64,000 nucleotides of DNA from Candidatus Omnitrophota bacterium (GCA_043808095.1 JAZDFF010000024.1:7868-71867), one strand, 5' to 3'; positions 26,477 through 63,991 are shown, counted from the first letter of the stretch. The notes: generated by a model not told the origin, from the sequence alone. Numbers and translations: made by a program.

Positions 26477-26479
26477 ATT

Positions 26480-28742: not shown

Positions 28743-28754
28743 CTGTTAAAAATT

Positions 28755-28845: not shown

Positions 28846-28848
28846 AAA

Positions 28849-32317: not shown

Positions 32318-32342
32318 TTTTTCTGTTGAAATATAACTACCT

Positions 32343-32390: not shown

Positions 32391-32427
32391 TCTCCGGAAT
32401 CTCTTCAATAATCGCTGGAATCATCAT

Positions 32428-36018: not shown

Positions 36019-36260
36019 ATACGCTCCTTTTAATGACCCCTGCCGTTTTGCTTCGCTTTTGCTCAGCAAAACGAAGCAGCAGGGAGAATTAATCCCGAAG
36101 CTTAATCCTAAAGGATAGACCTTACCCATTCATATTAGGGAAGGGTCTAAGCGAGGGATCTGTAATAATCTATCCTGTCTGTAATGTATCGATTGAAAAA
36201 TAGAAATAAGGCCAGGAGTAAGAATTATGATAAATAACCTAGCCTTATTTCTCTAACCGG

Positions 36261-46155: not shown

Positions 46156-46256
46156 GCTCCTTTAATGAACAGACAATTTATGCCTGCCTCACCGGCAGGC
46201 GGGGATTTCACAGATAAATTCACTTTTGGTAATCCATGCCCCCAGAAATTGCAATT

Positions 46257-47165: not shown

Positions 47166-47232
47166 CTTAAACTCCTTTTCTCCCTCGCTAAAAGGGTATC
47201 AATCTCATACAATAAGTACGTGTCCCCGGAAT

Positions 47233-47748
47233 TTATCCAATCAGCACCAGGCCGAAATAATTCGCCTTGCATCTTATTGAATCCAGGGTATCGATTTTGA
47301 AACCGTTGTTGCGTACGGTTTTAAAAACATCTATTCCGCAGGCCTCCATAGAAGGCCTGGCATTTTCCCGATGCCGGCACTCGCCTTTTAAGTTACATTC
47401 CCGGCAAAATCTGCAAGGGCCTGCGCCCATACCCAGGGCTTTATAATATCCGGAAAAGAACGCCTCTTTTTCTATCTTCAGGACGATCTTTGAGATATCT
47501 ATTCTCGAGCCGCTCTGGCAATGGATGATGATTGCCTTCCTGAAAGAATCAAGTATCTTTTGCGTCTCGCTAGGCCCAGGCGAATATGGCGGGCAGGTAA
47601 AACACTCGCCAAATCCCGAGCAGCCAAATTGGCATTTGTATCTTACCCAGGAGGCGGTCTTCACGGTTTTGACCTCAATGACCTTACTGTCTTTTGCGCC
47701 TAACTCTACGGCCCTGTCTTTTAATTGCTCGATAGTCTTTCTGTACAT
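47233..47748 (-). CDS. DUF2284-domain metal-binding protein
   Basis: CQFGCSGFGECFTCPPYSPG and a second CRFCRECNLKGEC Cys cluster are characteristic of DUF2284. Confidence 0.65.
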   Translation of the reverse strand: MYRKTIEQLKDRAVELGAKDSKVIEVKTVKTASWVRYKCQFGCSGFGECFTCPPYSPGPSETQKILDSFRKAIIIHCQSGSRIDISKIVLKIEKEAFFSGYYKALGMGAGPCRFCRECNLKGECRHRENARPSMEACGIDVFKTVRNNGFKIDTLDSIRCKANYFGLVLIG

Positions 47749-47834
47749 AATTTTAAACCAGTGGCCAAGCTTGTCCTGAGCATAGTCGAAGGGTGGTCGA
47801 CTGTTTGAGTGAAAAAGTATGTGTCCCCGGAATT

Positions 47835-48680
47835 CTAACGCAGAGAAAAAGCTATCTCTACGGCAGATTCAATCTTAAAAGGGATAAAGATATCCGTATC
47901 AGGAATCTTCAGGTGGCCGGAGAGCTGAAATTTCAGGGGATTCCGTTTGATAATTTCGTTGCGTATCAATCTACTCCAGATATTTCCTATCCGGATTGAA
48001 TCTTTTATCTGGTTTGATTGCGAGCCCCCGAATAAAGTCCGGGTAAGTTTACTTCTGGCGATATCCTTACCTTCCAGGGTATATATGCGGATTACGCCGT
48101 CTTCAAGGACCAGGTCAATACTCAAGGGATTAGTTATACCCAGGATAAATTCAATAGATGAGTTCCCCAAAATGGTGGAATCAAGTTTTGAGGAAAAAGC
48201 AACATAAAGAGGCCGGACTATAATTTCTTTCAGGGCCTTAAGATGCAGCACCGCGACATTGCTTTCAATTGGGATATGCAGGCCTAACTTTTTATAAGTA
48301 AAACCGGTGCGCATGAATACGGTTATGCTTTTATTGTTTAATACCGCCAAACCGAGATGAATGGATACCGGGGCTTCTAACTCCTGCTTAGATGTTACGC
48401 TCTTGGCTTTCCAGTCTAAAGTGTCTTGCGTCAAAATAACTCCGTTTTCATTCTGAATCTCCAGGTATATCTTCTCCAAATCAAGCGAGCTTTCCGTGGG
48501 GTTCTGGATGACTATTTTTCCCGAGACGATAATTTTGTTATTTTTCAGAGAGGGCTCAAGGTGAGCAATAATCTGAGGTATTTTAAAACTATTTTTACCG
48601 ACAACTAATTTCACAAGCGAAGCGCAGCCGCAGATAATAAACGCGGCCAAAATTACCGAGAAAATGGAGCCCACCCGAGC
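47835..48680 (-). CDS. hypothetical secreted/lipoprotein-like protein
   Basis: Signal-peptide-like ...SIFSVILAAFIICGCAS. No homology recognised. The ORF-track N-terminal 45 aa (to 48809) are Arg/Ala-rich and fall in a GC-rich repeat element; the real start is probably GTG near 48675. Confidence 0.4.
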   Translation of the reverse strand, partial: ARVGSIFSVILAAFIICGCASLVKLVVGKNSFKIPQIIAHLEPSLKNNKIIVSGKIVIQNPTESSLDLEKIYLEIQNENGVILTQDTLDWKAKSVTSKQELEAPVSIHLGLAVLNNKSITVFMRTGFTYKKLGLHIPIESNVAVLHLKALKEIIVRPLYVAFSSKLDSTILGNSSIEFILGITNPLSIDLVLEDGVIRIYTLEGKDIARSKLTRTLFGGSQSNQIKDSIRIGNIWSRLIRNEIIKRNPLKFQLSGHLKIPDTDIFIPFKIESAVEIAFSLR

Positions 48681-48835
48681 TAAAGCCCGGGGTTCCAAAG
48701 GCGGAATACTCAAGCGGCCACATCTTATCCGCGCCCTAGCCCCCGCAGGGGGCATGGGCGCGGTTTTCAGGCCGCGGAGTACAAAAATTATTTTCTTCTT
48801 AAATTTCATGGAATACCCCGGGCAGCTGGTCTAAC

Positions 48836-49240
48836 TTATAATTCAAAATCAAGAAGTTTTGCCATAAGCACGGTTTCAAGATAATCAAGATCTAGAGGCT
48901 TGATGATATAATCATACGCCCCCAGCTCAAGGCACTTATTTCCTGTCTTCTCCTCTTTTACCGCGGTAATCATCACAATACCGACTTCCTTGTCAATCTC
49001 TCTTATCCTTTTTAATGCCTCTATCCCGCCCATCCCCGGCATCCGGATATCTAAAAGCACTATATGCGGCCGTTCTTCTTTTACTTTTATTAAAGCCTGC
49101 TCGCCGCTTTGAACACTGGATGCCTCATAGCCTTTCTTAGCTAAAAACTTTTCTAACATATCACATATCGGCTTCTCGTCATCTACTATCAGGATCTTTT
49201 TCATCATACTCCCCGCTTTATACAACAGGCAATTTGACAA
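48836..49240 (-). CDS. single-domain response regulator (CheY-like receiver)
   Basis: KKILIVDDEKPI...LLDIRMPGMGG...ITAV receiver motifs. Likely start is MMKKI (49207) with GGGGAG SD. Confidence 0.8.
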   Translation of the reverse strand: MSNCLLYKAGSMMKKILIVDDEKPICDMLEKFLAKKGYEASSVQSGEQALIKVKEERPHIVLLDIRMPGMGGIEALKRIREIDKEVGIVMITAVKEEKTGNKCLELGAYDYIIKPLDLDYLETVLMAKLLDFEL

Positions 49241-50453
49241 TAAAAGTAGAACCCTTGCCTAATTTACTCTTTACCTCAATAGCCCCTCTGCATTTCTCGA
49301 TTATTCCGTAACAGACAAAAAGACCCAATCCCGTGCCTCTTTCCTTGGTAGTAAAGAACGGTTCAAATACTCTCATCAAAGCCTCTTCATCCATCCCTTC
49401 TCCCGTATCCTTAATTTCTATAACCACTATTTTTTCTTGGGGTTTAAATTTATCCGTCCTTCTTCTTCCGTAATCAGTTATTATTTCGCTGTAGGTTCTT
49501 ACGGTGAGGATCCCTCCGTTTTTCATTGCCTGAACCGCATTTAACATTATATTCAAGAATACTTCCTGGAGCTGATTCTCATATGCTAAGGGCTTAGGTA
49601 GATTAGCGTCCAATTCTTTTTTTATCTTTATCTTATCTAGTTTTGCCTGAAATGTCAGAAGAGAGATAGATTTCTCGATATCTTGATTTACATCTGTAGG
49701 CCTGTACTCGACTTCTTTCTGCCGGGAAAATTCTAAAAGGCTTCCGGTGATTTCTTTAATCCTGTTTGCCTGCTCTAATATTATTTTTGAAGCTTCTTTC
49801 GCCTCTTTATCATTGTTGTCTTGTAACATCCGGGCCTCGCCCGAGATGACAGATAAAGGATTATTTATATCATGGGCCACGCCCGCCGCTAAAACCCCGA
49901 CCGAAGCCATTTTGGCTGACTGGATTAATTGCTGCTGGGTCTGTTTGAGCTTTTCATAGGCATTTTTTAATTCTTCCTCGGACTTCTTGCGTTCGGTAAT
50001 ATCACGCATCACTCCCTGTATCGCAACAATCTCGCCCTCTTCCATTATAGGCTGGGCGTTGACTTCAATTAACACAAGCCGGCCGCGGTTGTCTATCTGA
50101 TTTATCTCAAATGGCTTAACTGCCTCGCCTTGAAGAATCATGTTTATCACTTCCAAGGCCTTCGGCACTTCGTTTAGGGGTGTGGTTTTCTTAAGATGCT
50201 TGCCGATAAGTTCTTCGGCTTTATAGCCATAAAGTTTCTCAACCCCCGGACTCACATACTCAATAACACCCAGGGGAGAAAGCTGAAAAATCACATCATT
50301 GATATTCTCTAATATCATCTTCGATTTCTTCTGCCAGACCAATAATGAATCTTGGGCCCACTTGTGCTGTGCCTCTAATTTTTCAAGCTCCTTAATCCGT
50401 TTCTTTAAAGAATCAATTTGCTCTCTTGAATTTTTGCCTGAGTCTTTATCCAT
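49218..50453 (-). CDS. PAS-domain sensor histidine kinase
   Basis: PAS-like region. H-box AHDINNPLSVISGEARML. ATPase G-box GTGLGLFVCYGIIE. Confidence 0.8.
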   Translation of the reverse strand: MDKDSGKNSREQIDSLKKRIKELEKLEAQHKWAQDSLLVWQKKSKMILENINDVIFQLSPLGVIEYVSPGVEKLYGYKAEELIGKHLKKTTPLNEVPKALEVINMILQGEAVKPFEINQIDNRGRLVLIEVNAQPIMEEGEIVAIQGVMRDITERKKSEEELKNAYEKLKQTQQQLIQSAKMASVGVLAAGVAHDINNPLSVISGEARMLQDNNDKEAKEASKIILEQANRIKEITGSLLEFSRQKEVEYRPTDVNQDIEKSISLLTFQAKLDKIKIKKELDANLPKPLAYENQLQEVFLNIMLNAVQAMKNGGILTVRTYSEIITDYGRRRTDKFKPQEKIVVIEIKDTGEGMDEEALMRVFEPFFTTKERGTGLGLFVCYGIIEKCRGAIEVKSKLGKGSTFIVKLPVV

Positions 50454-50518
50454 AGTTTTATCTTTCTGAAAAATCAGCGGCCGAGCTTGCCCTGAGCGAC
50501 TTGTGGTGAGTCCCTCGA

Positions 50519-51610
50519 CTACGCTCGGGATAAACGCAGTCGAACTAAGTCGAAGGGTGAAAAAGTGCGTGCACCCGCAGCTAAATACTCTTGTGTATAC
50601 TTTATGATATTATTCATCATCGCCACCGTCTCAACCGGATATCTTCCCACGGCTGATTCTGCCGAAAGCATGACGAAGTCGGTGCCGTCTATGATGGCAT
50701 TGGCAACGTCGCTCACCTCTGCGCGCGTAGGTCGGAAGTTTTCAGTCATACTTTCAAGCATTTGAGTGGCGGTTATAACAAACTTTCCCTGGCGGTTACA
50801 CTTTTTGATTATCATCTTCTGGATGACGGGAATTTCATAGATAGGAAGCGACACCCCCATATCTCCGCGCGCAATCATAATGCCGCTTGAGGCATCAATT
50901 ATCTCATCAATATTCTTTATGCCTTCTTTGTTTTCTATCTTAGAAATAACCTGGCACGCCGAACCTCTTTTAAGCAGCCTCCTTACCTCAAGGATATCCT
51001 GCTTTGTACGCACAAACGACTGGGCGATATATTCGACGCCGTGCTTTTGGCAGAAGAGTATGTCCTGTTTGTCCTTTGCGCTTATGCCTTTAAACTCAAG
51101 CCTTGCCCCGGGAATATTGATGCCCTTGTGTGGCTTTAGGACGCCTTCGATTATGACCCTGGTCTTCAGGCCATTCTTAACATAACCTTCCACTTCCAGG
51201 CAGATGTTGCCGTCATCAATAAATATCTGCCGGCCCTTTTTTATATCGCTTAAAGAGCCCTGATAATCAAATGGGATTATTGAATTGGCGCCTTTTATAC
51301 CCTCCTGGGTAAGCAAGATTATCTGGTGCTTTTTTAGCGTAAGCGGGACGCCCCCTGCAAGATCCCCCACCCTGATACGATGTCCTTCTAAATCTCCGAG
51401 TATCTTTATGCGCCTTCTGTATTTTGCATTTAATCTGCGGATTAGGTTTATCCTTAGAAGCCGTTCCTGCGGCTTCCCGTGGGAAAAATTAAGGCGCGCA
51501 ACATCCATACCGGCAAGCATCATCTTTCTGAGCACTGTCTCGCTCGATGAGGCCGGACCCAAAGTACAGATTATTTTAGTCTTTACCATAGAGCTATTGA
51601 AAAATGACAA
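50519..51610 (-). CDS. pyk: pyruvate kinase (barrel domain; C-terminal allosteric domain apparently absent)
   Basis: [14 protein letters not shown]...[11 protein letters not shown]-terminal PK signature. 363 aa. The last ~20 codons lie inside a GC-rich repeat element (50455-50585). Confidence 0.75.
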
Positions 51611-51748
51611 CCGATTTGTAAAACAGTGACCTAGTGAAAAAGTGCGTGTCTCGGGAAGTTAGATATCAGATACTAGATGCCGGATACCAGATAACAAGAT
51701 ACTAACTTTTAAGACAAGCGGCGATACAAAAAAACAAGCCCGTCCCCA

Positions 51749-52114
51749 CTATGCCGCATAAATCAACGCTACACCCAACACCAAAACCAGAAGCCCCATG
51801 CAACGCAGGACCAAATCCGACTGCTTCTCGTACCAGGAAATTATCTTTTTTACCTTCTCTATTCCCAGGACAAGGAGTAAGGCCCCTTTTATCAGGGCCC
51901 AGATTCCCAGAATAACCACCACCACCGGCAGTCTGCATTTAGGGGCGGCAGCCAAGAGAGCTATACCTATAATAAAGCTCAAAACCCCGCCTATTTTTAA
52001 ATTCTTAGCTCGGCTCCAGAAGCCAATCATTCCCCTGATAAACTTGGGGCGAATACTAATCATCAACCCCATCACTGCCATATAAAACGCCACCAACCAG
52101 ACTAAAACCTGCAT
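51749..52114 (-). CDS. small 4-TM membrane protein, function unknown
   Basis: Strong AGGAGGAG SD. Four hydrophobic helices. The overlapping 78-aa ORF (51702-51938) in a Gly-rich frame is probably spurious. Confidence 0.4.
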   Translation of the reverse strand: MQVLVWLVAFYMAVMGLMISIRPKFIRGMIGFWSRAKNLKIGGVLSFIIGIALLAAAPKCRLPVVVVILGIWALIKGALLLVLGIEKVKKIISWYEKQSDLVLRCMGLLVLVLGVALIYAA

Positions 52115-52261
52115 CGCTCCTCCTTTCTAAAATGTTCAGCCCTTCATTAAATTCATTCAGGGCTGTTGATTACGGTGATTTTTAATAAGATTACAGAAAT
52201 TAGTCCCTAGAAATATTAAGCATCCTCTCTATTTATGGCCTAAATAACAAAAATAGAGATA

Positions 52262-53554
52262 TCAATTTTGATTGAACTTTTTATTTATGAGTTCAAATAA
52301 TCTATCCTTTACTGCTTTAAATGCCTGCGGCATCGGGGAGGCCGCGGGAAAACCCTGATAGAATACCCTTTTTTCCGCATCTGCAATTTTTACGGATATC
52401 TTATGCAGGTAATATCTCTGACTTTCTCCTGCCCCGCCATAGGTAGTCTCTAATTCCATAAACCCCGCCTGGTTTATTAAACCGATTAAATCGCTGACTT
52501 CGTCTGCTGAAAGGGTCGTTTTTATGGTCCTTAAGTCTTCTCTGTCCCAACAAGGGGCCTGTCTCATCCATTGTTTACACTTGCCGTCTTTGTCTTCAAA
52601 ATAGGTGTAGGATAATTGTGCCTGATTTATTTCGATGTCTTTATAAATAAGTTCCGAAGAAAAGTAATAGCTGACAGAAAATTGCTCGGCTGACTTTTCC
52701 TGCATGGCTTTTAAATGACCGGATATCCGGGTCTCTGCGCTGGGAAGCGCATTTAAGTCTTCTACTATCAGCCGAATATCCGCAGGCAATTTCATCCCCA
52801 GGAGCTTAAAGGGAAAACACATCTCCACAAAATCGCCTCCAAAGGCGATATAGGCGGGTTTATCATAACTTGCCCGATTTCCGCCGGCTAACTCCTCATA
52901 CTCGCAATTAAAGGTGGTGCCGTAATCTGCCTCCTGCTCATTATAGCTTTTTATCTTCTCAATCTGATACCAGGCAGCGGGTCTAATCTCTTCTATAGGA
53001 GCGCCTTCTTTCTTAACAAATCCTTCGGGCAGGTATATGCGCCAGTCCCAGCCGGGATATACGTCCTTTATGTGTCTTCTGGCCCCGGTTGCGCTACTGC
53101 CGTCGGCATCCAGATATAGGTATCCGATATGACCGGTGGTCTGTTTCTTGTCAAAACGTTCCTTAACGCCGGGTTTAATTTCCAGCAGAAGAAAAAGATT
53201 CTGGACATCGTAAGCCAGGCGCACTGATTTTATCCGCCTGGTATCTTCAAACATAGGCATGTTATATATATTTGACCACTCGAGATTCTCTAAAGGACTA
53301 ATCCCGGCTGCCTGCCAATCAGCGATATCGCCATCAATAATGATAGCACCCGATGCTAGGTCTTTGATATCTTTATAGACAACCTCATCCATAACCTTGG
53401 CCGCTGAGGTTCTTGACTCTTCTTTGACAGGTTGATAACTTCCTCTTTTGACAGGCTGATAACCTCGTCTTGGAAATAACCAGATAGACAATACCCCTGC
53501 CAAAATAATAATGCTGATTAAGAATATCTTCGTCTTTTTCATAAAAATCCTCAC
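52262..53554 (-). CDS. hypothetical secreted protein
   Basis: N-terminal signal/TM (IFLISIIILAGVLSIWLF). No homology recognised. Confidence 0.4.
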   Translation of the reverse strand: MRIFMKKTKIFLISIIILAGVLSIWLFPRRGYQPVKRGSYQPVKEESRTSAAKVMDEVVYKDIKDLASGAIIIDGDIADWQAAGISPLENLEWSNIYNMPMFEDTRRIKSVRLAYDVQNLFLLLEIKPGVKERFDKKQTTGHIGYLYLDADGSSATGARRHIKDVYPGWDWRIYLPEGFVKKEGAPIEEIRPAAWYQIEKIKSYNEQEADYGTTFNCEYEELAGGNRASYDKPAYIAFGGDFVEMCFPFKLLGMKLPADIRLIVEDLNALPSAETRISGHLKAMQEKSAEQFSVSYYFSSELIYKDIEINQAQLSYTYFEDKDGKCKQWMRQAPCWDREDLRTIKTTLSADEVSDLIGLINQAGFMELETTYGGAGESQRYYLHKISVKIADAEKRVFYQGFPAASPMPQAFKAVKDRLFELINKKFNQN

Positions 53555-53612
53555 TGTTTAGAAGGCCTTATTGCCTGGGCTTTCCCAACCCCCGCAGCCA
53601 CCTGTCTATCAG

Positions 53613-53922
53613 GGCAATTCCGGGGACACGTACCTTTTTCAATTCCGTGCAATTCCGGGGACACGTACCTTTTTAAACTCTCTTCCTTCCTCAAAATAAT
53701 GAACCTGGCGATATTTCGAGCGAATGGAGATTTTAGCCAAGGAAGCTTGAGCATTTTCGGGAATCCAAACGCGGAAGCATTTGGATGGCGAGGATGTTTG
53801 AGCTCGTCCTGGGGCGGAAGCCCCGACGAGCGAGTTCCGCAGCCACCGAAAATGCGAAAGACCCTTGGCGTGCCCCAAAGGGGCAAAATCGACCCTGAGC
53901 GAGAAAGTCGCCAGGTTCATTA
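53613..53922. repeat. GC-rich intergenic element with two tandem copies of the conserved 24-nt motif (minus orientation) and 17-bp terminal inverted repeats
   Basis: caattccggggacacgtaccttttt at 53615-53640 and 53650-53677. aataatgaacctggcga (53696-53712) is the exact reverse complement of tcgccaggttcattatt (53908-53924). Flanked by an imperfect ~38-bp direct repeat (53571-53612 versus 53925-53962). Confidence 0.6.
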
Positions 53923-56900
53923 TTTAGGCTTTCCCAACCCCCTCAACCAACTGTCTATTGCCCCCTGGATCTGACCTATTTTTTCAAAAATTGCACCAGT
54001 AACTTTTTGTTTTGCCTCTTGTTCTAACTTTTCTTTCGTTAACTTCTCCACGTGCAAAGAGGCAGTCATCACATTATTGGTTTCGTTAGTCTCTTTAATG
54101 ATGTCTTTGCCGTCTACCCTGGCCTCTATGGTATGATCACCGGCGATTAATGCCGGTAATGTCGCGGATATCTTGATTTCCTGGCCCGGGTCTAATATCG
54201 GCACTACCTTAACATAGACAGGTTTTGTACCACTGGGGCCAATAGTACACAAAACCCCACGCAATATATCCTGGCCGATATTCTTGACTGAAGCCTGGGC
54301 AGTAACCGGCTCTCCCTGCAGGCAGGAGGTCTTGCTCAAAGAGAAATTCGTCACCGCCACATCCTTGTAGCCTGTGCCGAGAATACCAGGCTTGACCTTT
54401 ATTTTGACTGTAGCCGCATTATTATTTTCATCTTTCTCAGGAATGGCTTTTTTGGCATCCACCATAAACTTAACAGTACAGTCGCCGCTTTTTGAAAATG
54501 TATGTCTGAAGGTAACGGTCCTTTCGCTGTTCGCGTAAAAATCGCCCAAGGCCTGGCCGGCTTCAAGCTCATCGTCAATAAGCATATCCAGGTCCGCGCC
54601 CCAGACGGTAATGCCGCAATTATTGTGCACCGTAACTTCAAAGGTCACCGGTAAATCCGTAGTCGGCTCTTTGTTACTTACTTTAATATCCTTGTCAATC
54701 GACAGGTCCGCGTCTTTGCCGCTAAAATATATCTGGGAGGTAACTTCTCCGGACACATTGAAATATTTCTCTAACTTATTATTATATTCGTCGGTCTCGG
54801 CAATCGCGCCTTGAGGATCAACCAAGACCGTCAGTTTATAATCGGCAGGATATACCCCTTTATAATCCACAATAATGGAAGCTCCGCCTTCCTGTCCGAC
54901 CGAAGGAATTACCTTTGCGCCTTTTCGATAACCGTGGCCGGCCGTGACGTCATTTAAAGCCAGGTTCCAGAACTCATATTCCACCCTGACATTTTTGGCC
55001 TCCACCAGATTAGGATTGCCGATGACAATAGTAATGGCACGGGTTTCACCCACCTCCAAAGGACGGTCTAAATTTACCACGTCAGCCACAATTAAATCTG
55101 ACGCCTCGGCGCGGATATTGCGCGGCGGCTCATAGGCATGGTAAGTGCCGAAATGAAAATCCTTGGTGTTATTTTTCTCATCCGTTTCCGGGATTTTGTT
55201 GTCTTTGTCCACGATTAGTTGCATTTTACAGTTATTGCATAGCTCTTTATCCAATTTAACTACTTTAAGTTCATGCGAGCGGATATCCCCCAAATTTTTG
55301 GAGTAACCCGCAACCGGCTTTTCCGTATACGAATGATATTCAAGCGCATCCAGATTCAACTGCTTTGCGGTTTGGCTGCCCCGGTTGTAAACCTTTGCCG
55401 TGATATTCGGGCCCACTCCCCCATAGGAGGCAGCATCCAGTACCACATCTATTCCCTGCACACCCGGCATCAGCGTGCCGACGGAAATTGACTTTTCGGC
55501 AGTTACTAATTCCTGACCGCCTGCCTCCAGCACCACCTTAAAGGTGTGGGTGCCGCCGCGCACAGTCCAGAGGATAGGTTCGCTACTACCTAAACCCACG
55601 CCCTGGTTTTCTCCAGGCGCCACACTAAGCCTGACAGTCTTAATCAGCTCCCCGTCCACAAAAATCTTGGCAATAGCATCTTCCTTTGCGCCTTTATTGG
55701 TGACGCTAAAATAAAATTTCAGCTGCTCGCCGATTTTTGGCGAATCGCTGCTAAGCATCAGGCTATAAACAGGTATCTCCCAGGCATAATCCGGCAGTAA
55801 CACCTCTGCCCGGGCTTCTGCATGGTTATTCTTCTCATTAAAATCGCTTTTGCCCCTCAGGCCCCTTTCCACCTCGCACCTTAAGACGTAACTTCCTTTG
55901 TCCTGGGGCGTCCATTTAAAGGTCAGATTGGCCTCCTCGTTGGGTTTTAAATAGTGATTCAAACCCAGTCTCTGCTCGCTCACCTTTGCATTATTTACGA
56001 GGAGTTCAGCCACCGGATTCAAATCTTCGCTGTAGCCGATATTTTTGATGCGCACGCTGATGGTTACGGCCTTGCCCGCATAAATGCGCTGTGGCAAATC
56101 GTTAAATGCCACGGTTAGATCCGGGGCAATATTCAGGTTAATCGCCTCGCTGTATTTTTCATCATTATCGTAATTCCATTCATAGCTGCGTTTGTCCTCA
56201 TTGACCCTGACCAGAAACCTGTTACTGGTAAAGGGAAGTTTTGCCTTAACTTCAATCCTATGCGTTGCCCCGGCAGAAAGAGCCGGTAATTCCAGATTTT
56301 CTCCTACGGGCCGAAACGCGTTATTGTCTGAGACTGCTCCGATCTTAATGGAGGTCGGGCTGCTGGTAAGACCGCTGTCATTTTTGATTTGCGCGCTGAC
56401 TGTCACTTCGTCTCCAATACGCAAATCTTCGGCCTTCTTGTTAAGAGGCAGGGTTACTTCCACGGAACTTACTACCAGGTCCGGCCATTTCGGCACTTGG
56501 GGGTCAGGTATCATCTCTACCCGCGCTAATACCCCGGAACAAAAAGCCCGGTTAATCTTTACCTGCTGCAGGGTAATGGGTAATAATTTATGCAGGATCA
56601 CCCCAACCCAGTTTCTCTTTTCTTTGATTCTATCCCGATATTGAGCAACCTCAATGTTATCCCGAAGTAGCTCAAAAGTGCCTACCATATACCATCTTTC
56701 CTTGAGTTTCTTGTCCATCTTGGCCTTAAACTCCCGGACTATCTCTTCGTCGCTTTTCTGGTCCTTATACTCATTGACCAGGCTGGTAAGCTTAGGCATC
56801 ATCTCATCGTAAGATTTTATTTTCTCCTTAAGGAATTTCTTGAGGCCTGCAACTTGCTCCGGCGTAATCTTCATTTCAAACTCTTTCTTGGCCTCCTCTA

Positions 56901-57492
56901 AGACACCCAGGGGGGTATTACCAAAATTATCCTTAAAATACGTCCGCTCGGTATCATAATGTTGCTGGGTTCCCATACCCGTAACACCGTCTTTGATCGT
57001 ATCACTGATTTCCATAAAGGTGTTGTACATCTCAATAAGATTGGCTATCTCACCTATAAGCGGAATTACCTCTCCTGCGACCTGACCGACAGCCCGGCCG
57101 GTTGCCTTAAGAGACTTGCCTACTACATCAGCTATACTATTGCCGACTTCCTGGGCGGTATTAGATGCGCCGAACCCATACTCCATGGCTATGTCAGAGG
57201 CCTGCTGGAATCTTTTCAACATTACATCCACGGCCTCATCAAAGCTCGGAAATGCAGACCAGTAGGATGAAGATGCCTCATTTAATCTGGACATATCTAT
57301 GAATGCCTTTTGCAGTTTTTGCAAATACAATTTATCCATCTCAGAAACCTGCGCGGCCAAATATTCGTTTGCCTGCGCCCTTACTTTAGCCGGGGCGCTA
57401 TCCCACCATTCAGCCCTGGCAATTTCGGGCCTTAAGATAAAAAATGCCGTCATAACGACTGCCAGGCATAAGACGAATTTCTGCTTAACCAT
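53920..57492 (-). CDS. large secreted multi-CARDB-domain protein (surface/adhesin-like)
   Basis: Signal peptide MVKQKFVLCLAVVMTAFFILRPEIARA. N-terminal helical region followed by at least 6 Ig-like repeats ending in ...E.NNH/..ETNNV (CARDB-type E.NE.NN blocks). Confidence 0.6.
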   Translation of the reverse strand: MVKQKFVLCLAVVMTAFFILRPEIARAEWWDSAPAKVRAQANEYLAAQVSEMDKLYLQKLQKAFIDMSRLNEASSSYWSAFPSFDEAVDVMLKRFQQASDIAMEYGFGASNTAQEVGNSIADVVGKSLKATGRAVGQVAGEVIPLIGEIANLIEMYNTFMEISDTIKDGVTGMGTQQHYDTERTYFKDNFGNTPLGVLEEAKKEFEMKITPEQVAGLKKFLKEKIKSYDEMMPKLTSLVNEYKDQKSDEEIVREFKAKMDKKLKERWYMVGTFELLRDNIEVAQYRDRIKEKRNWVGVILHKLLPITLQQVKINRAFCSGVLARVEMIPDPQVPKWPDLVVSSVEVTLPLNKKAEDLRIGDEVTVSAQIKNDSGLTSSPTSIKIGAVSDNNAFRPVGENLELPALSAGATHRIEVKAKLPFTSNRFLVRVNEDKRSYEWNYDNDEKYSEAINLNIAPDLTVAFNDLPQRIYAGKAVTISVRIKNIGYSEDLNPVAELLVNNAKVSEQRLGLNHYLKPNEEANLTFKWTPQDKGSYVLRCEVERGLRGKSDFNEKNNHAEARAEVLLPDYAWEIPVYSLMLSSDSPKIGEQLKFYFSVTNKGAKEDAIAKIFVDGELIKTVRLSVAPGENQGVGLGSSEPILWTVRGGTHTFKVVLEAGGQELVTAEKSISVGTLMPGVQGIDVVLDAASYGGVGPNITAKVYNRGSQTAKQLNLDALEYHSYTEKPVAGYSKNLGDIRSHELKVVKLDKELCNNCKMQLIVDKDNKIPETDEKNNTKDFHFGTYHAYEPPRNIRAEASDLIVADVVNLDRPLEVGETRAITIVIGNPNLVEAKNVRVEYEFWNLALNDVTAGHGYRKGAKVIPSVGQEGGASIIVDYKGVYPADYKLTVLVDPQGAIAETDEYNNKLEKYFNVSGEVTSQIYFSGKDADLSIDKDIKVSNKEPTTDLPVTFEVTVHNNCGITVWGADLDMLIDDELEAGQALGDFYANSERTVTFRHTFSKSGDCTVKFMVDAKKAIPEKDENNNAATVKIKVKPGILGTGYKDVAVTNFSLSKTSCLQGEPVTAQASVKNIGQDILRGVLCTIGPSGTKPVYVKVVPILDPGQEIKISATLPALIAGDHTIEARVDGKDIIKETNETNNVMTASLHVEKLTKEKLEQEAKQKVTGAIFEKIGQIQGAIDSWLRGLGKPK

Positions 57493-57650
57493 TTTTCCCC
57501 CTTTAATGAGCAGACAACTTACGCAGTGAAAGTGCGACGCCCTACTTCTGCTTTAGCTTCGGAGAATATCCACCGAAGTCTAAACGAAGGTGGACCTTGG
57601 CGAAGGAGAACGTAAGTCGTCGCTCCGACGATACGTCGGAGCGTCTGCGA

Positions 57651-57728
57651 ATTAATCCTCCGAAGCTCTACCATCTACCACCTGGGTAAAGAGCGTAGGA
57701 GGATAAAAAACCGTCCCCATTATTTCCG
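57651..57728. repeat. 78-bp direct repeat, copy 1 (second copy at 58381-58458)
   Basis: gaatt[a/g]atcctccgaagctctaccatctaccacctgggtaaagagcgtaggaggataaaaaaccgtccccattatttc is identical except 1 nt at the two sites, flanking gene 57720-58313. Confidence 0.85.
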
Positions 57729-58313
57729 CATCATCCCCCTACCGCCCATGCCCTTCATACCTTCCGTATCCTTCATCATCTTATTCATTTCTCTTCGCTG
57801 ATTCTGCATTTTCTTTTCCATATCTTTCCTTGCCTTCTCTGTCTTGGCCTGCACTTCTTCTTGCTTCTGCCGAAGCTGTTTCTTCGCCTGGTCCATTTCT
57901 GACTTTCTCTGCCTTACTGCCTCACGGACCTTCGCGGCCAAATCTTTACCCTTCAGGCCTTGAGCCTTTGCCCCAAGCGCAGCCTGAGAAACAACATTAC
58001 CAGCCTGCTTTGGCATTTCTCCGTTCTTAACCAGCTCATTCATGGAATTAGCAGCATTCTGTAAATCCGCTCCCTTAACGCCTTTTCCCGAAAGATCAAA
58101 GATAAACTTCTTTACTTCATCCTTAGTGGCTCCCCCGCCTAACATCTCCTTTACCGGCTTTTCCACTAAATCCAGATCCTGAGAAGATACTCCTTTTTTT
58201 TGAAGTTCTGTTTTCATTTGCGTAAAGGCGACATTAACATCTTCGGCATGAACAAAACCGGCAAAAAAACTAAAACAAGCCGCTAAAACCAACGCCCTCA
58301 ACAATATCCTCAT
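57720..58313 (-). CDS. secreted Lys/Gln-rich hypothetical protein
   Basis: Signal peptide MRILLRALVLAACFSFFAGFVHA, then a low-complexity K/Q/M-rich C-terminus. The ORF-track N-terminal extension (to 58406, ...INSPCCFVLL...) is translation of a repeat element also found at 36030-36100. Confidence 0.4.
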   Translation of the reverse strand: MRILLRALVLAACFSFFAGFVHAEDVNVAFTQMKTELQKKGVSSQDLDLVEKPVKEMLGGGATKDEVKKFIFDLSGKGVKGADLQNAANSMNELVKNGEMPKQAGNVVSQAALGAKAQGLKGKDLAAKVREAVRQRKSEMDQAKKQLRQKQEEVQAKTEKARKDMEKKMQNQRREMNKMMKDTEGMKGMGGRGMMRK

Positions 58314-58380
58314 ATTCTCCTCCTCAATGACCCCTGCCGTTTTGCTTCGCTTTTGCTTGAGCAAAACGAAGCAGCAGGGG

Positions 58381-58458
58381 GAATTGATCCTCCGAAGCTC
58401 TACCATCTACCACCTGGGTAAAGAGCGTAGGAGGATAAAAAACCGTCCCCATTATTTC
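58381..58458. repeat. 78-bp direct repeat, copy 2
   Basis: See copy 1. Immediately preceded by the shared element atgacccctgccgttttgcttcgcttttgcttgagcaaaacgaagcagcaggggg (also at 36030-36085). Confidence 0.85.
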
Positions 58459-58503
58459 ATTTGTTTTACAACCTTTTAAACTGCAAATTGCTGAGTAAAG
58501 CGC

Positions 58504-59004
58504 CTATGGATTTGTGTTTCGCCGTCGGAAAACTGGCTTCTTACTTTTACCAGACCTTCGGTTTCCGCCGCCCAGCTGTTTATAAAAATGGCGTCCTTGG
58601 GCAAAATCTCCTTCTCTGGGCCTATTATCGTATTTTCCTTTAAACGAGCCACCTTCATTGCGCTTTGAGAAACACTCTCTGCAATATACCGGACGGTCTG
58701 CGCTGGGCTTGAAAGGGACTTCGCATTCTTTCTTACAGTCTGCGCAAATCGCTTGGGTAAAGTTTCTTTCTCTGTAACTATTGTCTTGTCTTCCTTTGCC
58801 ATGACGGTAAGAGCGGTCGAAGGGTCGTGAAGGTTTTGAGAAATGCTTCTTCTCAAAAGGCCTTTCTGAAGACTGACTGACTAAGGTATCTATTTTTCCC
58901 TCCAAAGAAACCAACTGCTGTTGCATTGCATTAATTAGAGCTACTACATCCGGCTCAACTTGTGGTGGAACCGAAGGACTATCGTGTTTAAAATGTTTTT
59001 TCAT
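58504..59004 (-). CDS. hypothetical basic protein with CxxC-x17-CxxC zinc-ribbon motif
   Basis: CADCKKECEVPFKPSADRPVYCRECF. Highly basic, low-complexity C-terminus. Confidence 0.4.
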   Translation of the reverse strand: MKKHFKHDSPSVPPQVEPDVVALINAMQQQLVSLEGKIDTLVSQSSERPFEKKHFSKPSRPFDRSYRHGKGRQDNSYRERNFTQAICADCKKECEVPFKPSADRPVYCRECFSKRNEGGSFKGKYDNRPREGDFAQGRHFYKQLGGGNRRSGKSKKPVFRRRNTNP

Positions 59005-59224
59005 ATTGCTCCTTTTTAACCATTCTACCTCAAACAAAAAATAAAATCAAACCAACAAAAAAATATTATGTTGGAAAAACTGGCGTCAGAACTCGGGCCA
59101 TATTTACCTCAATCTTTTAATTAATTTTAGGCAGTTCTGAAATGAGATTTTCTTTTATCTTTTAACTTGCCTCTTCTTATTCTTTATAGTTTTGTTATCT
59201 AATCTATTGATTTTAGATATAAAT

Positions 59225-59668
59225 CTACTTCAACACCTCCAAAATATCATTCTCATCGGCTATTTGTAATCCCTTAATAATCTTATTCTGCCACTTTTTT
59301 AAAGGAACTGAATTGAAAACCTTCTTTATAATGCCTGTTTCGCCCTTATCAATCAGTGACTTTAATATTTCAATGGCAATATTTCTATCCTTAACCGCTT
59401 TATATTCTTTTTGCCTACGCTGAAAGATAATTAACTTATGTAAAGCGAAGTTAGCCGGATGAGGTAAAGTTACATAAAAATCTTCTACTTTTACCTTGAT
59501 AGTGTTTACAGACAGAAAACTCAAAAATCTCAGAGCAACTGCATTCATTCCTAATTTTGGCAAAGGGACAGGTTTATCTGTTCCCTTTCCTTTCTCCGGT
59601 ACTAAGAATTCAAGTAATAAATCCGGATGATCTAATTTAATATATCCCTTGTTTAAAGATTTAGGTTA
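59225..59668 (-). pseudogene. C-terminal fragment of a nucleotidyltransferase-fold (GSU2403-like) protein; no ATG start, begins right after an in-frame stop
   Basis: Open frame PKSLNKGYIKLDHPDLLLEFLVPEKGKGTDKPVPLPKLGMNAVALRFLSFLS...LPHPANFALHKLIIFQRR... resembles the C-terminal half of GSU2403-type nucleotidyltransferases. Only a TTG start is available. An HNH endonuclease gene occupies the position where the N-terminal half would be. Confidence 0.4.
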
Positions 59669-59706
59669 CGGATCTACAAAAAATGAAATTTAGCCGAGAA
59701 AAATAT

Positions 59707-60375
59707 TTAATACTGATCGTGTTTTTCTAAGTTACATCTTTCGCAAGATGTAATCAGATTGGATTCATTGTTATCTCCACCTTTGTCTAACGGTAGAATA
59801 TGGTCTATATGTAATTTTGCACCATCTTTTGGTGTTCTGCCACAATATTGACAAGTAAAAGCATCTCTTTGAAAAATATGGAATCTATTCACACTTTGTG
59901 ATGGTCTGGATGAAATCCTAAGAGAATATAGCAATGATTTTATTTTAGATAATTTTTTAATTAAATTTTTCCGTAATGCTATTCTTTCCTTTAAATCTTT
60001 CGGTACTTTCTTTCCATAATATTTAGTTTTTACCTTATTCCCTTCTCTGTAAGCGAGATAATAATAAAGCTTGCCTTTGATATCCTTCAATTGAAATGTT
60101 CCTTTAGGAGAAGCATTAATTGCCCTCTTTATATCTTTATAGTAATTAAGATAATAATTTCTCCATACTAAAAAAGACCTCTCCCAATTTTCAATAGCAT
60201 TCTTCTTAGCCATAATCTTACTATTGCTTTCCCATTTATCTGTTTTGTAATAACAGAAGACACAAATACCATTTGTTAAAAGGCAATCATTACTGAGATG
60301 TTCAAAACATTTTTTGCAGTATCCCATTATACTCCTGTATATTTTTATTATAACATAAAATAAATTAATTATCAA
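59707..60375 (-). mobile_element. HNH endonuclease gene with N-terminal Cys-rich zinc finger, in a very AT-rich islet
   Basis: C-terminal CQYCGRTPKDGAKLHIDHILPLDKGGDNNESNLITSCERCN is a canonical HNH motif. N-terminal CKKCFEH...CVFC. Region 59040-60480 is markedly more AT-rich than its surroundings. Confidence 0.7.
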
Positions 60376-60507
60376 ACAAATTTATATTTGTTGGTTAACA
60401 TATATCTACATTGGGCAAAATTCCCCGATTGGCGTTTAAATTTTATCCCTATTCTACGGTGTTTTTCGAATATCAGTCAGTTCTGACACGAGATTGTGTC
60501 CAGCGTC

Positions 60508-60924
60508 CTAATCGCCTATTATCTTGATTAAAACGCGCTTTTTACGCCGGCCGTCAAATTCTCCATAAAATATCTGTTCCCAGGGGCCGAAATCAAGCCT
60601 GCCGTTGGTAATTGCCACTACGGCCTCTCTACCCATTATTGTCCTTTTTAGATGGGCATCTGCGTTATCTTCTCCGCTAAGGTTGTGCCGGTATTTATCC
60701 TTGCCATACGGCGCAAACTCCTCCAGCCATGCGCTGAAATCATGATGCAGCCCCGGCTCATCATCGTTGATAAAAACCGAGCTGGTTATATGCATGGCAT
60801 TAACCAGACAAAACCCCTCCTTAACTGCGCTTTTCTTAACCGCCTCCTCTACCTGCGGGGTTATATTTATAAACTCCTGCCTGTTTTTTGTATTAAACCA
60901 TAAATATTGCGTGCAGGATTTCAT
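60508..60924 (-). CDS. yjbQ: YjbQ-family (UPF0047) secondary thiamine-phosphate synthase-like protein
   Basis: [25 protein letters not shown]...[38 protein letters not shown] matches YjbQ/UPF0047. 138 aa. Confidence 0.85.
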
Positions 60925-60975
60925 TTCTCCGACATCCCGATCACCCCGGGCAAAAAGTGTTTGTCCCCGGAAGTT

Positions 60976-61632
60976 TTATAACCAGCCTTTGTCCTGCCAG
61001 TACTTGTACTCTTCTTTCCAATCCTCTTTTCTTAATTGCATTATTCTCTTAAAATGCTCTTTGCCGGCCTCGATGATTTTCATCTGATCAACAAATACAT
61101 TTTTATCCTTTATATCCCGGAGGATTTTTTTACCTAACTGATAAGCCTCCTCTGCCTTTTCCTTTATGGCATACGCAGAAGACGATACGCCTCCCGAATA
61201 CTGCGCACCGCAGGTATGAGCGTAATATTTTATATAATCCAGCACATCTTTATCCTGCCCGCTTCCCGAGGAGACAACGCCGGCAATGTATTTACCGAGG
61301 AGCCGTTTACAGTGGATAAAATGCGCCGAGCGGTCAAAGAGGGCCTTCATCGAGGCCGTAACCTGGTTTATATAATTAGGCGAGGCCAGGATTATTCCGT
61401 CAGCCTCAAGCATCTTTTCAAGAATTATTGAAATACCGTCTTTTAGCGAACAATTAAGAATCTTTTTATGGCAGGCCTCGCAATGCTGACAAAAATTTAT
61501 ATGATACTCTAATAAATGAATGACCTCGCATTTAGCGCCCTCATCAGAAAAGGCCTGCAAGACCTCCCCTGCCAGAAGAAAGGTCTGGCTTTTTTCTTTA
61601 TGGGGGCTGGAAGAGATAACCAAAATTTTCAT
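60976..61632 (-). CDS. flavodoxin-like NAD(P)H-dependent FMN reductase / iron-sulfur flavoprotein family
   Basis: MKILVISSSPHKEKSQT...IILASPNY flavodoxin-like fold motifs. Cys cluster CQHCEACHKK as in Isf-type proteins. Confidence 0.65.
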   Translation of the reverse strand: MKILVISSSPHKEKSQTFLLAGEVLQAFSDEGAKCEVIHLLEYHINFCQHCEACHKKILNCSLKDGISIILEKMLEADGIILASPNYINQVTASMKALFDRSAHFIHCKRLLGKYIAGVVSSGSGQDKDVLDYIKYYAHTCGAQYSGGVSSSAYAIKEKAEEAYQLGKKILRDIKDKNVFVDQMKIIEAGKEHFKRIMQLRKEDWKEEYKYWQDKGWL

Positions 61633-61771
61633 TTTAAAAAAGTGCGTGTCCCCGGAAATTTTACTGATTTATTCTGTATCTTTTTTAATATCAGTCAGTT
61701 ATCAAGTTCTGACACGGATTTTTCGGTTTTTTTTGACACGGTTTTTTCCCTATTTTTTCTCTGAAATAAAT

Positions 61772-62056
61772 TTATGCTAAAGAAGCTCGATGGGACAAGA
61801 TGTTCGCCCAGGTAAGCATAGATTCAGCCCAATCTGCGTCCATACGGACATCATGGGAGAGGCGCTTGAAGTCATTCTTGAACCATTCATAGGTGGGTGA
61901 AAAACGGAGCGATTTCGGGGCGGATTCCAAGGCCTTTAGATATTCTTGGGTCTGGGCCAAGAACTGTTCAACTCGCTCCTTGCGGCCTTCCATGGCCCAA
62001 GTGCACAGACGACCCAAGTTTACGGCGATATTCAAAGTTAATTCCTTAGCTGTCAT
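61772..62056 (-). CDS. hypothetical small protein
   Basis: 94-aa ORF. No homology recognised. Bounded on both sides by GC-rich repeat elements. Confidence 0.3.
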   Translation of the reverse strand: MTAKELTLNIAVNLGRLCTWAMEGRKERVEQFLAQTQEYLKALESAPKSLRFSPTYEWFKNDFKRLSHDVRMDADWAESMLTWANILSHRASLA

Positions 62057-62358
62057 AATCTACTCCAGTAATTAGAACTTCCGGATCTTTTTGGCACGGA
62101 TGATTAATAACATTTTTACAATATTATAGCATGGAATACCCCACAGGCAAGCCCATGTTACCTAAATTTACCCTCCTTCGCTGAAGAACTTTCGTCTTCA
62201 GCTTCGGCGGGTTATCCCCCTATTTCATATACGACTTGCCCTTTAGTGACATCCTCCGAAGCCCCGACGTATCTTCGGGGCGAAGGGGGATAAAATTAAA
62301 AATGTAGCCTAAATTATCTGTAAAAAGTGCGTGTCCCCGGAAATTTATTAAGATTCGT

Positions 62359-63453
62359 TTATTGCTTGCAGGTTTTGCCAACCAGATCTAAATAATCGTC
62401 TATGCGAATAGCTCCTTGGGGTATTTTGCAATCTGGATTAGTGTTCCCACCTCCGCCGATAGCCCAGGTATCTTCACAGAATTTACCTAAATCCTTCCCA
62501 TCAAAGGATTCTTTCCGAATGGCATATACTTCTCCGCCAGATTCACCAATGAGAAATTGATTGTTGTAAACAAATAAACCCTCATGGCGGCCAAAATCTC
62601 TATATCTTTTCATCACATCATAAATTATTGAGACCCTGTCATCGGGTTTAATTTCTTCAGAGCGTATATAATGATCGTATATTTGATTTTCCCGTTTCTG
62701 CTTTAGGGGCAGCTCGGTCAAGACTTTTTCCCTCTCATTAAAGTAGAGATTTTTCATATAATCCCATAAGCCATAAGCATAAAGTTTAACCCCTTTTCTA
62801 AAAATATATACCTTTAATTCATTGCCACTTAATTTAACATCATAGGATTCGTTATCTGCGCCTAAAAAGGAAATCCCTGATAACATGCTATTGCGGTCTC
62901 GTTGAGACCCTGAAACGGTACTTGTTATTTTTTTTATCTCGACTTTATTTTTTGTCTTCTCATCGACAATGGTTTTAATTTTCCCTTCACTGATATCCAT
63001 TAGATCTATCTCTTTGACAGAAAAAATATAGTAATATCCCTCTTGTGTAAAACTGATTGGTAACTTTTCGATGTTACCATCCTTTGTTATCACATATTCA
63101 TCTGTAACATGTTCTGGCATATAAGTCCCTTGGGGATGACGCATAAGAAATCTATCATTATAATAAAAGAGGTGATAGAATCCTGTGCTACTTATTCTAC
63201 AACCACTGCAATTCCAATCTTCGCATTTGCAATTTAAATAATCGGTAAATATCTTTAGTTTTTCCTTGAATTTTAAATATTTAGGAACTGATTCTTCTCC
63301 TGTTTCCCATTGCGGTCTTGGGGCATTCCTGTTGCACTCTTTTAATATGTCATCCGTAACATCGGCAAAGGATAAATTTAACCATAGAAATGAGGCAGAT
63401 ATTATTAAATAGCATATCCGCCTGTTATGTTTAATGCTCTTTATAAACTTCAT
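62359..63453 (-). CDS. hypothetical secreted Cys-containing protein
   Basis: Likely start MKFIKSIKHNRRICYLIISASFLWLNLSFA (signal peptide). No homology recognised. Confidence 0.4.
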   Translation of the reverse strand: MKFIKSIKHNRRICYLIISASFLWLNLSFADVTDDILKECNRNAPRPQWETGEESVPKYLKFKEKLKIFTDYLNCKCEDWNCSGCRISSTGFYHLFYYNDRFLMRHPQGTYMPEHVTDEYVITKDGNIEKLPISFTQEGYYYIFSVKEIDLMDISEGKIKTIVDEKTKNKVEIKKITSTVSGSQRDRNSMLSGISFLGADNESYDVKLSGNELKVYIFRKGVKLYAYGLWDYMKNLYFNEREKVLTELPLKQKRENQIYDHYIRSEEIKPDDRVSIIYDVMKRYRDFGRHEGLFVYNNQFLIGESGGEVYAIRKESFDGKDLGKFCEDTWAIGGGGNTNPDCKIPQGAIRIDDYLDLVGKTCKQ

Positions 63454-63634
63454 GTATCCTTTTGGGGATAATAGCTCCTTACCTTTCACGCTACACTTCC
63501 CGTCGCTCATTTCACTTTTCTCCTTTTTTACTTTTAAAGTATGGCAAAAAGTATGATGTTAGAATTCGGGACTTCGCGGGACTCCCTTCGGTCGCGAGTG
63601 ATCTAGAGAAAAAGTGCGTGTCCCCGGAATTAAA

Positions 63635-63991
63635 TTATTGCCTCGCTTTTAAAGCATTAATAAGGTTATATATAAAGTCTATAGCGACAATTAAGACAGG
63701 TATACTCCAGATCGCCTGTATGATAAGACGATTCTTAAGTATTAACTCGGCCGAATCAGGATTTCTAAAAATTACGCGACCAACAGTATTGAACATTAAT
63801 GCATTTATACCAGGAACCGAATAGAGAAGCGCAATAAGTAAAAAAGTATAAATAAATTTAGTTTTCGGATTAATATCCTCAGGCACAAATCTAAGGCCCC
63901 TGGTACCAAAAGATAAATCTGAACCAAAAGAAAATAAAGAAAAATTATAATTTTCAATAGCAAAAAATACACCTAAACCTATTAGAGCCAA
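63635..63991 (-). CDS. hypothetical membrane protein (may extend beyond window end)
   Basis: Three hydrophobic helices. ORF start sits within 10 nt of the window edge. Confidence 0.3.
   Translation of the reverse strand: MALIGLGVFFAIENYNFSLFSFGSDLSFGTRGLRFVPEDINPKTKFIYTFLLIALLYSVPGINALMFNTVGRVIFRNPDSAELILKNRLIIQAIWSIPVLIVAIDFIYNLINALKARQ

Follow-up and report, generated by a model that had tools for sequence, protein, structure and literature searches.

A short, co-oriented intergenic repeat in a Candidatus Omnitrophota chromosome and its possible relation to REP elements and Y1 transposases

Repeats of the repetitive extragenic palindromic (REP) type are defined by a tag, GTAG or CGTC, and doublets of them 1-5 bp apart have been described for REP families (PMC3733652), inverted REP doublets being known as REPINs (PMC3116915, PMC3337134). 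Abundant flanking repeats are the hallmark of the genes for REP-associated tyrosine transposases (RAYTs) (PMC5581495). Stoperators are asymmetric sites of another kind, at which a monomeric repressor halts elongation across a phage genome (PMC9283540). Here we describe M1, a repeat of 21-25 nt in the intergenic spacers of a 64,000-nt stretch of Candidatus Omnitrophota DNA (GCA_043808095.1 JAZDFF010000024.1:7868-71867), hereafter the window, and compare it with these systems. The Omnitrophota are uncultured, and no description of their non-coding genome was found in the searched literature. We show that M1 was inserted into short spacers of co-directional genes in this lineage; it belongs to the small interspersed extragenic repeats, an already known kind of element, and is itself new to the databases searched.

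M1 in the spacers of co-directional genes

In the sense of the genes M1 reads AAWTTCCGGGGACACGYACTTTTT, an asymmetric unit with the core GGGGACACGYACTTTTT and the conserved end (TTCC)GGGGACAC. The original prediction, made from the window's sequence, had reported a repeated motif here, and the repetition proved real, with exactly 10 copies against 0 expected by chance and with all of the earlier coordinates correct to within a few bases. A 24-mer gave 9 matches at up to 3 mismatches in the 64-kb window, compared with 0.00 expected from 100 shuffles, and a weight matrix built from the copies returned exactly 10 sites scoring 27-39 bits, the best site other than M1 reaching 12.4 bits, which is the level of shuffled sequence. 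All 10 copies fall within 47.2-63.6 kb; they occupy 9 of the 16 spacers between 47 and 64 kb versus 0 of 19 between 1 and 47 kb (Fisher p = 1.6e-4). Every gene in the M1-bearing part of the window lies on the minus strand, and eight copies are co-oriented with the genes, the two exceptions forming one tandem pair. One orientation is therefore shared by 8 of the 9 independent sites (p = 0.04), in keeping with the bias that had been noticed before. Five of the eight sense copies start 0-15 nt past the stop codon of the upstream gene and one ends 4 nt ahead of an ATG. Altogether, 9 of the 10 are confined to spacers or overlap no more than a stop codon, the remaining, degenerate copy forming the end of a read-through open reading frame (ORF).

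The original prediction had also proposed a comparison with related genomes. We examined seven loci of Omnitrophota relatives, about 80 kb in total (L013-L015 and L018-L021), reached through homologues of PurC and the FMN reductase with 75-84% identity, and even at a lenient threshold M1 was present in none of the seven (purC loci L013-L015; FMN-reductase loci L018/L019, L020 and L021). The DUF2284 gene (L018/L019) and the FMN-reductase gene (L018, L020) of these relatives keep the same stop codons as in the window, where M1 begins exactly past the conserved stops. The relatives' spacers are short and carry a Shine-Dalgarno sequence: the one between DUF2284 and the FMN reductase in L018/L019 measures 22 nt, that between pyruvate kinase and the FMN reductase in L021 about 40 nt, and that downstream of the FMN reductase in L020 is likewise short. 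Gene pairs adjacent in the relatives, unlike in the window, are PEPCK-purC (L013, L015), DUF2284-FMN reductase and pyruvate kinase-FMN reductase. Since the relatives lack M1 at comparable loci, the M1 copies are insertions.

To define the extent of the repeat we aligned 13 copies, the 10 from the window and 3 from other loci. Conservation spans only about 23 columns and forms one contiguous block in which two central positions vary. When all spacers were compared with the window by short-word BLAST, similarity past M1 emerged in two copy pairs only, extending at most 12-15 nt further; the 51.6-kb and 63.6-kb copies have 12 additional nt in common, and the 47.8-kb and 50.5-kb copies a CACCCTTCGAC block. 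Folded singly, M1 units are not more stable than shuffled sequence (minimum free energy of 0 to -0.6 kcal/mol). The weight matrix detected no inverted M1 partner above noise in the window, and no consistent target or flanking duplication was found at the M1 copies: a flanking duplication is present at 1 of the 10, and gene-end duplications at the others were rejected, as the matches there were weak, 12-13 nt long and judged to be chance. With Rfam 15 the whole window gave no match at gathering scores, and in the 45-64-kb part an E value of up to 5 yielded four chance-level matches, none at an M1 copy; the motif had not been recognised as any known element before, and no Rfam family was found for it.

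The individual sense copies, all on the minus strand, vary in their distance to the neighbouring genes. The copy at 63608-63632 (TAATTCCGGGGACACGCACTTTTTC; 38.9 bits) begins 3 nt after the stop of ORF 63635-63991, and that at 62321-62345 (36.8 bits) follows the stop of ORF 62359-63510 at 14 nt, with a separate foldback element and a canonical sigma-70 promoter downstream of it. The copy abutting an ATG, at 61636-61660 (38.0 bits), precedes the flavodoxin/FMN-reductase gene, which has no Shine-Dalgarno sequence there, and a GGGGACAAACAC variant at 60951-60975 directly follows the stop of the same reductase. A CCCGAGAC variant at 51636-51660 lies 26 nt upstream of the pyruvate kinase ORF. At the other end of this ORF, the degenerate copy at 50559-50583 (27.5 bits) has lost its stop-codon frame and is read through as a C-terminal extension, a 23-residue pyruvate kinase tail, confirming for this ORF the artefactual extension that had been suspected. 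The copy at 47811-47835 directly follows the TAG stop of ORF 47835-48809, and at 47210-47234 a copy 45 nt upstream of purC overlaps the DUF2284 gene's TAA stop. The tandem pair (53615-53639 and 53650-53674, together 53615-53674 on the plus strand) has a 35-nt period and the opposite orientation, and lies within a 318-bp composite insert. Furthermore, a short M1-related form, consisting of a stop codon, TGGGGACGG and T6, occurs at 57705-57719 on the minus strand; with TAA or TAG as the stop and 6-7 T it recurs on the same strand at 58437-58451 and 51728-51748.

Several established site types were considered for M1 and rejected. An intrinsic (Rho-independent) terminator, one of the earlier suggestions, is not what we found, as M1 has a T run without a stem; a terminator scan of 45-64 kb returned sites no more often than in shuffles and none at M1. 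For an integron attC site, the RYYYAAC/GTTRRRY boxes are missing or stand in the opposite order, and M1 has no hairpin. A conserved -10/-35 or -24/-12 partner, as a phage-type or alternative sigma promoter would have, is lacking, and one copy is just 4 nt away from an ATG; downstream of M1, canonical sigma-70 promoters are present both in the 62.3-kb spacer and in the metagenomic locus L010. Group II intron fragments and IscB/TnpB guide-RNA scaffolds gave no Rfam matches, and a nearby HNH protein matches through its HNH domain only. The architecture or distribution that defines dif/Xer and parS/Noc sites, uptake sequences, CRISPR repeats, Tn3-type ends and oriT nic sites is absent as well. Resemblances to these are short and partial: AAAGTGCG in M1 is shared with the uptake signal of Haemophilus and with the nic site of RSF1010, and ATTTCC-GGG with Noc sites. 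M1 was absent from 72,556 plasmid records and 50,697 phage records, and its sequence was not found as text in the searchable literature of 8 million papers.

Related sequences in other genomes and the Y1 transposase family

An exact 21-mer scan retrieved 3 loci in reference genomes and 9 in metagenomes, that is 12 loci with 9 distinct sequences. We rejected L001/L007 and L004 as chance matches inside coding sequence for KKYVSPE, and L006 is probably a chance match too. True single copies sit in DNA of 40-48% GC (L008/L012, L009 and L010). In L008/L012 one copy lies 13 nt past a stop codon; L010 has two copies, sense to its genes and adjoining Fic and Schlafen-like genes; and in L009 a single copy, reversed in orientation, separates the stop codon of dtd from a retron-type reverse transcriptase-TIR gene. 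At this last locus (L009 553-2233) M1 abuts the dtd stop; an inverted repeat (GAGGCGATGTCGAGA / TCTCGACGTCGCCT) comes next and then the reverse transcriptase-TIR gene, the layout of a retron defence system. L010 also has the second motif of the window, ATCCGTGTCAGAACT. The form (ATC)CGTGTCAGAACT lies upstream of genes both in the window (61705-61716 and 60479-60490, minus strand) and in L010 (about 60-80 and 2790-2815); in L010 it comes after a 45-nt repeated unit (TGCAAAACAAATCTTTAAGGAAAAGAAGAATAATCC), and at one site there M1 takes its place after this unit.

At other loci the sequence is part of a palindrome, GGGGACACGTACTTTTT, a loop of 4-5 nt and AAAAAGTACGTGTCCCC, an inverted M1 doublet. 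It was found in an alphaproteobacterial metagenome-assembled genome (MAG) of 70% GC (L002/L005), in a Pseudobdellovibrionaceae MAG (L003), where it carries the compensating double changes ACAC/GTGT, in Hainich groundwater DNA (L011) and in two GC-rich viral contigs (L016 and L017), directly after a gene reading like a major capsid gene in L017. All of these palindromes are perfect, with stems of 17-21 bp, and fold at -29 to -30 kcal/mol (z -8.5 to -10.4). Because a 21-mer matched at random would hardly ever happen to form an arm of a perfect hairpin, the palindrome is a genuine relative of M1.

In L012 the single M1 copy lies 250 bp upstream of a gene for a 196-aa Y1_Tnp protein (PF01797, E = 3.6e-9) of IS200-like/RAYT-like type, whose homologues are named RayT by JGI and in several cases are assigned to Candidatus Omnitrophica. 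We compared independent members of this Y1 family (L022/L023, L024/L025, L026 and L027). The Y1 genes in L012, L022, L026 and L027 are bracketed by inverted hairpin-N5-GGGGACA(C/G/T) repeats with the hairpin body GGTGACAGTCACC, the first gene of L026 having a covarying GGTCAGACCCC hairpin, and in L024 two tandem hairpin repeats upstream of the Y1 gene face a mirrored hairpin downstream. All GGGGACAC occurrences in L022-L026 belong to the hairpin repeats bracketing Y1 genes, and within M1, too, GGGGACAC is the part that is conserved best; the flanking repeats of the L012 Y1 gene itself share only GGGGACA(C) with M1. The Y1 transposase family was not found in the viral contigs. From this adjacency and shared sequence a link between M1 and the Y1 transposase family is suggestive, not proven, and we infer that the Y1 family moves M1. 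As to the setting of the transposase genes, those in L022, L024 and L026 are located downstream of giant RHS/YD toxin genes; on Omnitrophota-like contigs (L022, L024, L026 and L008/L012) Y1 genes, sometimes two consecutive ones, stand behind a giant RHS/YD-repeat toxin gene and small putative immunity genes.

GC-rich foldback elements and other features of the window

The M1 copies had originally been regarded as the ends of one family of GC-rich, hairpin-rich elements. This part of the original prediction did not hold, given the roughly 23 conserved columns of the alignment and hairpin segments that also occur without M1 (26477-26763, 48690-48800 and 57493-57719). The GC-rich segments fold better than shuffled sequence (z -2.8 to -9.6) and are heterogeneous, not homologous to one another. 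Since they are heterogeneous and present without M1, two kinds of small insertion occupy the same spacers, and the GC-rich hairpins are small mobile elements distinct from M1. At least two of the segments are self-contained foldback elements: a MITE-like one of 232 bp at 53694-53925 with perfect 18-bp terminal inverted repeats (z = -9.6; MITE, miniature inverted-repeat transposable element), and one of about 136 bp at 62163-62298 with 19-nt arms (z = -4.9), about 25 nt from the 62.3-kb M1. A further segment, the 287-nt spacer at 26477-26763, is packed with hairpins and has 62% GC in a genome of roughly 40% GC (minimum free energy -154 kcal/mol, z = -7.0); it contains no M1 copy and has no Rfam match. 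The short palindromes and recurring sub-blocks reported before do exist, but one palindrome, ctcgccaaaggcgag, lies at 45363, outside the range that had been given for the family, and the sub-block atcctccgaagct recurs only because of a 78-nt duplication.

The 232-bp foldback element and the two tandem M1 units make up the 318-bp composite insert within 53578-53958, which has an imperfect direct repeat on either side, about 32-33 nt long and with roughly 90% identity between its copies. The downstream copy (53578-53609, minus strand) matches the one at 53927-53958, which is the 3' end of the CARDB gene, so that the repeat duplicates the final codons of this 1190-aa gene. It follows from the gene-end duplication that the CARDB gene ends ...GLGKPK*, with a displaced ...GLGKPRQ* remnant downstream. 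Repeat-derived sequence also enters ORFs, at 48690-48810 and 50519-50583; the N-terminus of ORF 47835-48809 (...APMPPAGARARIRCGRL...) crosses a GC-rich hairpin before a lipoprotein signal peptide. For this lineage, M1 and the neighbouring foldback elements lead gene calling to false extensions at N- and C-termini, as at the lipoprotein N-terminus and the pyruvate kinase C-terminus.

The window itself is ordinary chromosome, with a polysaccharide gene cluster at 1-26 kb and central metabolism at 26-47 kb. Its PurC shows 100% identity to a protein encoded on a 72,440-bp contig of a Candidatus Omnitrophota MAG, for which reason an archaeal origin was rejected. After the metabolic genes come purC, the DUF2284 gene, a two-component pair, a short pyruvate kinase, the CARDB surface protein, an HNH nuclease, UPF0047, the flavodoxin-like FMN reductase and several unknown secreted proteins; apart from the one HNH nuclease, no phage genes were found near the M1 copies. 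Other repeats were observed as well. A leader comprising a GC hairpin (GCCTGCC...GGCAGGC) and then ATAA(G/A)TTGTCTG(C/T)TCATTAAAGGAG stands just before start codons at 46156-46200 and 57493-57520 of the window and at 8560-8615 of a related Omnitrophota genome (L021), and may be a lineage-wide element of 5' untranslated regions. Some spacers hold arrays, in both orientations, of the short words ATCCGT/ACGGAT and AATCACNGTAATC (21897-22016 and 28545-28848; 24134-24234, 32318-32427 and 52115-52261), which resemble binding sites in clusters. Two distant coding regions (36032-36063 and 58326-58357) have an exact 32-nt repeat in common, and a glycosyltransferase gene of 1552 aa contains a 126-bp tandem duplication (15897-16148).

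Candidate explanations and known systems

Most probably, M1 belongs among the small DNA repeats of REP type, selfish or domesticated, and is not a structured RNA. More specifically, we tentatively favour, at somewhat below even chances, a REP/REPIN-like repeat spread by a hairpin-recognising Y1 transposase. The hairpin doublet would be the replicating form, and the single copies of the window would be half-units or decayed derivatives of it. The enzyme recognising the units, in the form of single-stranded DNA, would be an HUH tyrosine (Y1) transposase of IS200/RAYT type that is encoded elsewhere in the genome and acts in trans. Such an enzyme cuts and re-joins strand-specifically, without target duplication, and this would explain why terminal repeats and target duplications are missing and orientation is biased. 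The location behind stop codons would reflect original spacers of about 20 nt together with selection against genic insertions, any effect of M1 on transcription or mRNA being secondary. Among the possibilities raised in the original prediction, a REP/MITE-like repeat is the best supported, by the relatives without M1, the doublets elsewhere and the Y1 link, although M1 fails the strict MITE and REP definitions: it lacks an inverted partner and a target duplication, and its single unit forms no hairpin.

Several observations weigh against the favoured explanation. The single M1 unit is not a palindrome, it has no GTAG or CGTC tag and contains only GTAC and CGTG, and it is nearly identical across phyla, whereas REP sequences normally differ between species; a vertically inherited RAYT would account for this near-identity less well than a functional site or an enzyme that moves horizontally. 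For a genome-wide repeat, ten copies within 17 kb are unusual when 47 kb hold none, and the tight post-stop position and the orientation bias suit a transcript function equally. The window has neither an inverted M1 doublet, its sole pair being a direct tandem, nor a Y1_Tnp homologue. The transposase link consists of one adjacency and one shared 8-mer, and the repeats bracketing Y1 genes differ from M1 in their body, the GGTGACAGTCACC hairpin.

Four other explanations were weighed against the same observations. M1 could be the asymmetric site of a DNA-binding protein that blocks or insulates transcription between genes, an orientation-dependent roadblock like a stoperator, the palindromes elsewhere being a dimer-binding version of the site. 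We consider this unlikely, though several features are as it would have them: the asymmetry, the single orientation relative to transcription, the short spacers with overlapped stops or abutted starts, and conservation limited to a contiguous block with two variable central positions. Canonical intrinsic terminators, moreover, are not enriched in 45-64 kb and are absent from these gene ends, and in the 62.3-kb spacer M1 stands between the upstream stop and a canonical promoter. The region, however, is ordinary chromosome (purC, pyruvate kinase, two-component system) and not prophage, no candidate repressor was found, 21 conserved bases are long for a single protein site, the relatives presumably express the same genes without M1, and near-identity across phyla would require a shared trans factor. 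The tight fit to cistron boundaries could instead point to the transcript, with M1 as a linear mRNA recognition sequence for RNase processing, an RNA-binding protein or an antisense RNA; transcription of the inverted tandem pair at 53.6 kb would then yield anti-M1. M1 is in sense orientation immediately 3' of stops and ends in U5, the shorter form (stop, UGGGGACGG and U6) occurs three times in the same position, and one copy replaces the Shine-Dalgarno region of the FMN reductase with an AU-rich leader. But M1 has no structure and, besides the inverted copies, no partner sequence in the window; it is absent from 47 kb of similar operons on the same contig, opposite in orientation in L009, and its palindromic copies in GC-rich genomes are not consistently in sense transcripts, which makes a target in mRNA improbable. 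A family of structured non-coding RNAs formed by M1 and the adjacent GC-rich hairpins, as had been suggested, has next to no chance of being correct. The strong folding of the GC-rich segments relative to shuffled sequence (z -2.8 to -9.6) speaks for it, but they have no Rfam match, occur without M1 and include at least two whole-length, MITE-like foldbacks with terminal inverted arms, and M1 itself is unfolded; the flanks are not homologous, and therefore nothing can covary.

The clustering of the copies could also mean that M1 serves a site-specific recombinase for crossover or recognition, 47-64 kb being a series of gene cassettes accreted one by one, each leaving a direct repeat. Co-oriented direct repeats do bound single-gene units (the 383-aa ORF, the FMN reductase, pyruvate kinase and DUF2284), they are concentrated in one region whose gene order is unlike that of the relatives, M1 adjoins defence-type cargo in L009 (retron RT-TIR) and L010 (Fic, Schlafen-like), and the 53.6-kb insert is bracketed by a 32-33-nt duplication of a gene 3' end such as integrative elements leave. 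Nevertheless, we doubt this strongly: the 64-kb window encodes no integrase or recombinase, M1 lacks an inverted-arm-plus-core structure, the attC signature is absent or wrongly ordered, the would-be cassette genes are typical Omnitrophota neighbours and not foreign cargo, and a flanking duplication accompanies just 1 of the 10 copies. In a broader proposal, which we regard as quite unlikely, M1 would be the sequence recognised by an enzyme that moves horizontally and acts on single-stranded DNA, either a Y1/HUH transposase or a recombinase; this enzyme would place the 21-base unit precisely behind stops and so partition operons into cassette-like units, the same site being a perfect hairpin in Proteobacteria, Bdellovibrionota and phages. 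If this were true, M1 would represent a REP-like system that spans phyla, is not palindromic and has a tag of its own, GGGGACAC, with a possible host role as an orientation-dependent gene-boundary element. Similarly, a true Y1 link would mean a REP-like system whose single unit is no hairpin and whose tag is unlike those of the two known REP super-families, and its sharing across phyla would challenge the view of REP/RAYT pairs as lineage-bound and vertically inherited.

Compared with known systems, M1 shares with the stoperators of cluster A mycobacteriophages (L5 gp71-type) its asymmetry, its single orientation and short spacers that overlap stop or start codons; it differs in its length of 21-25 nt as against 13-14 nt, its chromosomal housekeeping setting, its palindromic form elsewhere and the lack of an identified repressor. 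Mycobacterial interspersed repetitive units (MIRUs) likewise lie within operons in one orientation with ends overlapping the flanking stop and start codons, but they are 46-101 bp long, tandem and contain small ORFs, whereas M1 is 21-25 bp long, mostly single and non-coding. MITEs are small non-autonomous spacer insertions, a description that the 232-bp and ~136-bp foldback elements fit; M1, without a terminal inverted repeat partner or a target-site duplication, was rejected as one. From REP/REPIN systems M1 differs in that its single unit is no palindrome, its tag is GGGGACAC rather than GTAG/CGTC, its doublet spacer is just 4-5 nt, it is near-identical across phyla, and its window copies are clustered and co-oriented. 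With them it has in common the form of a 20-40-bp extragenic repeat with many copies in the spacers of co-directional genes, single units alongside doublets, inverted in other genomes to form one long hairpin, the lack of target duplication and, as for RAYTs, a Y1 transposase gene at another locus with related repeats in its flanks.

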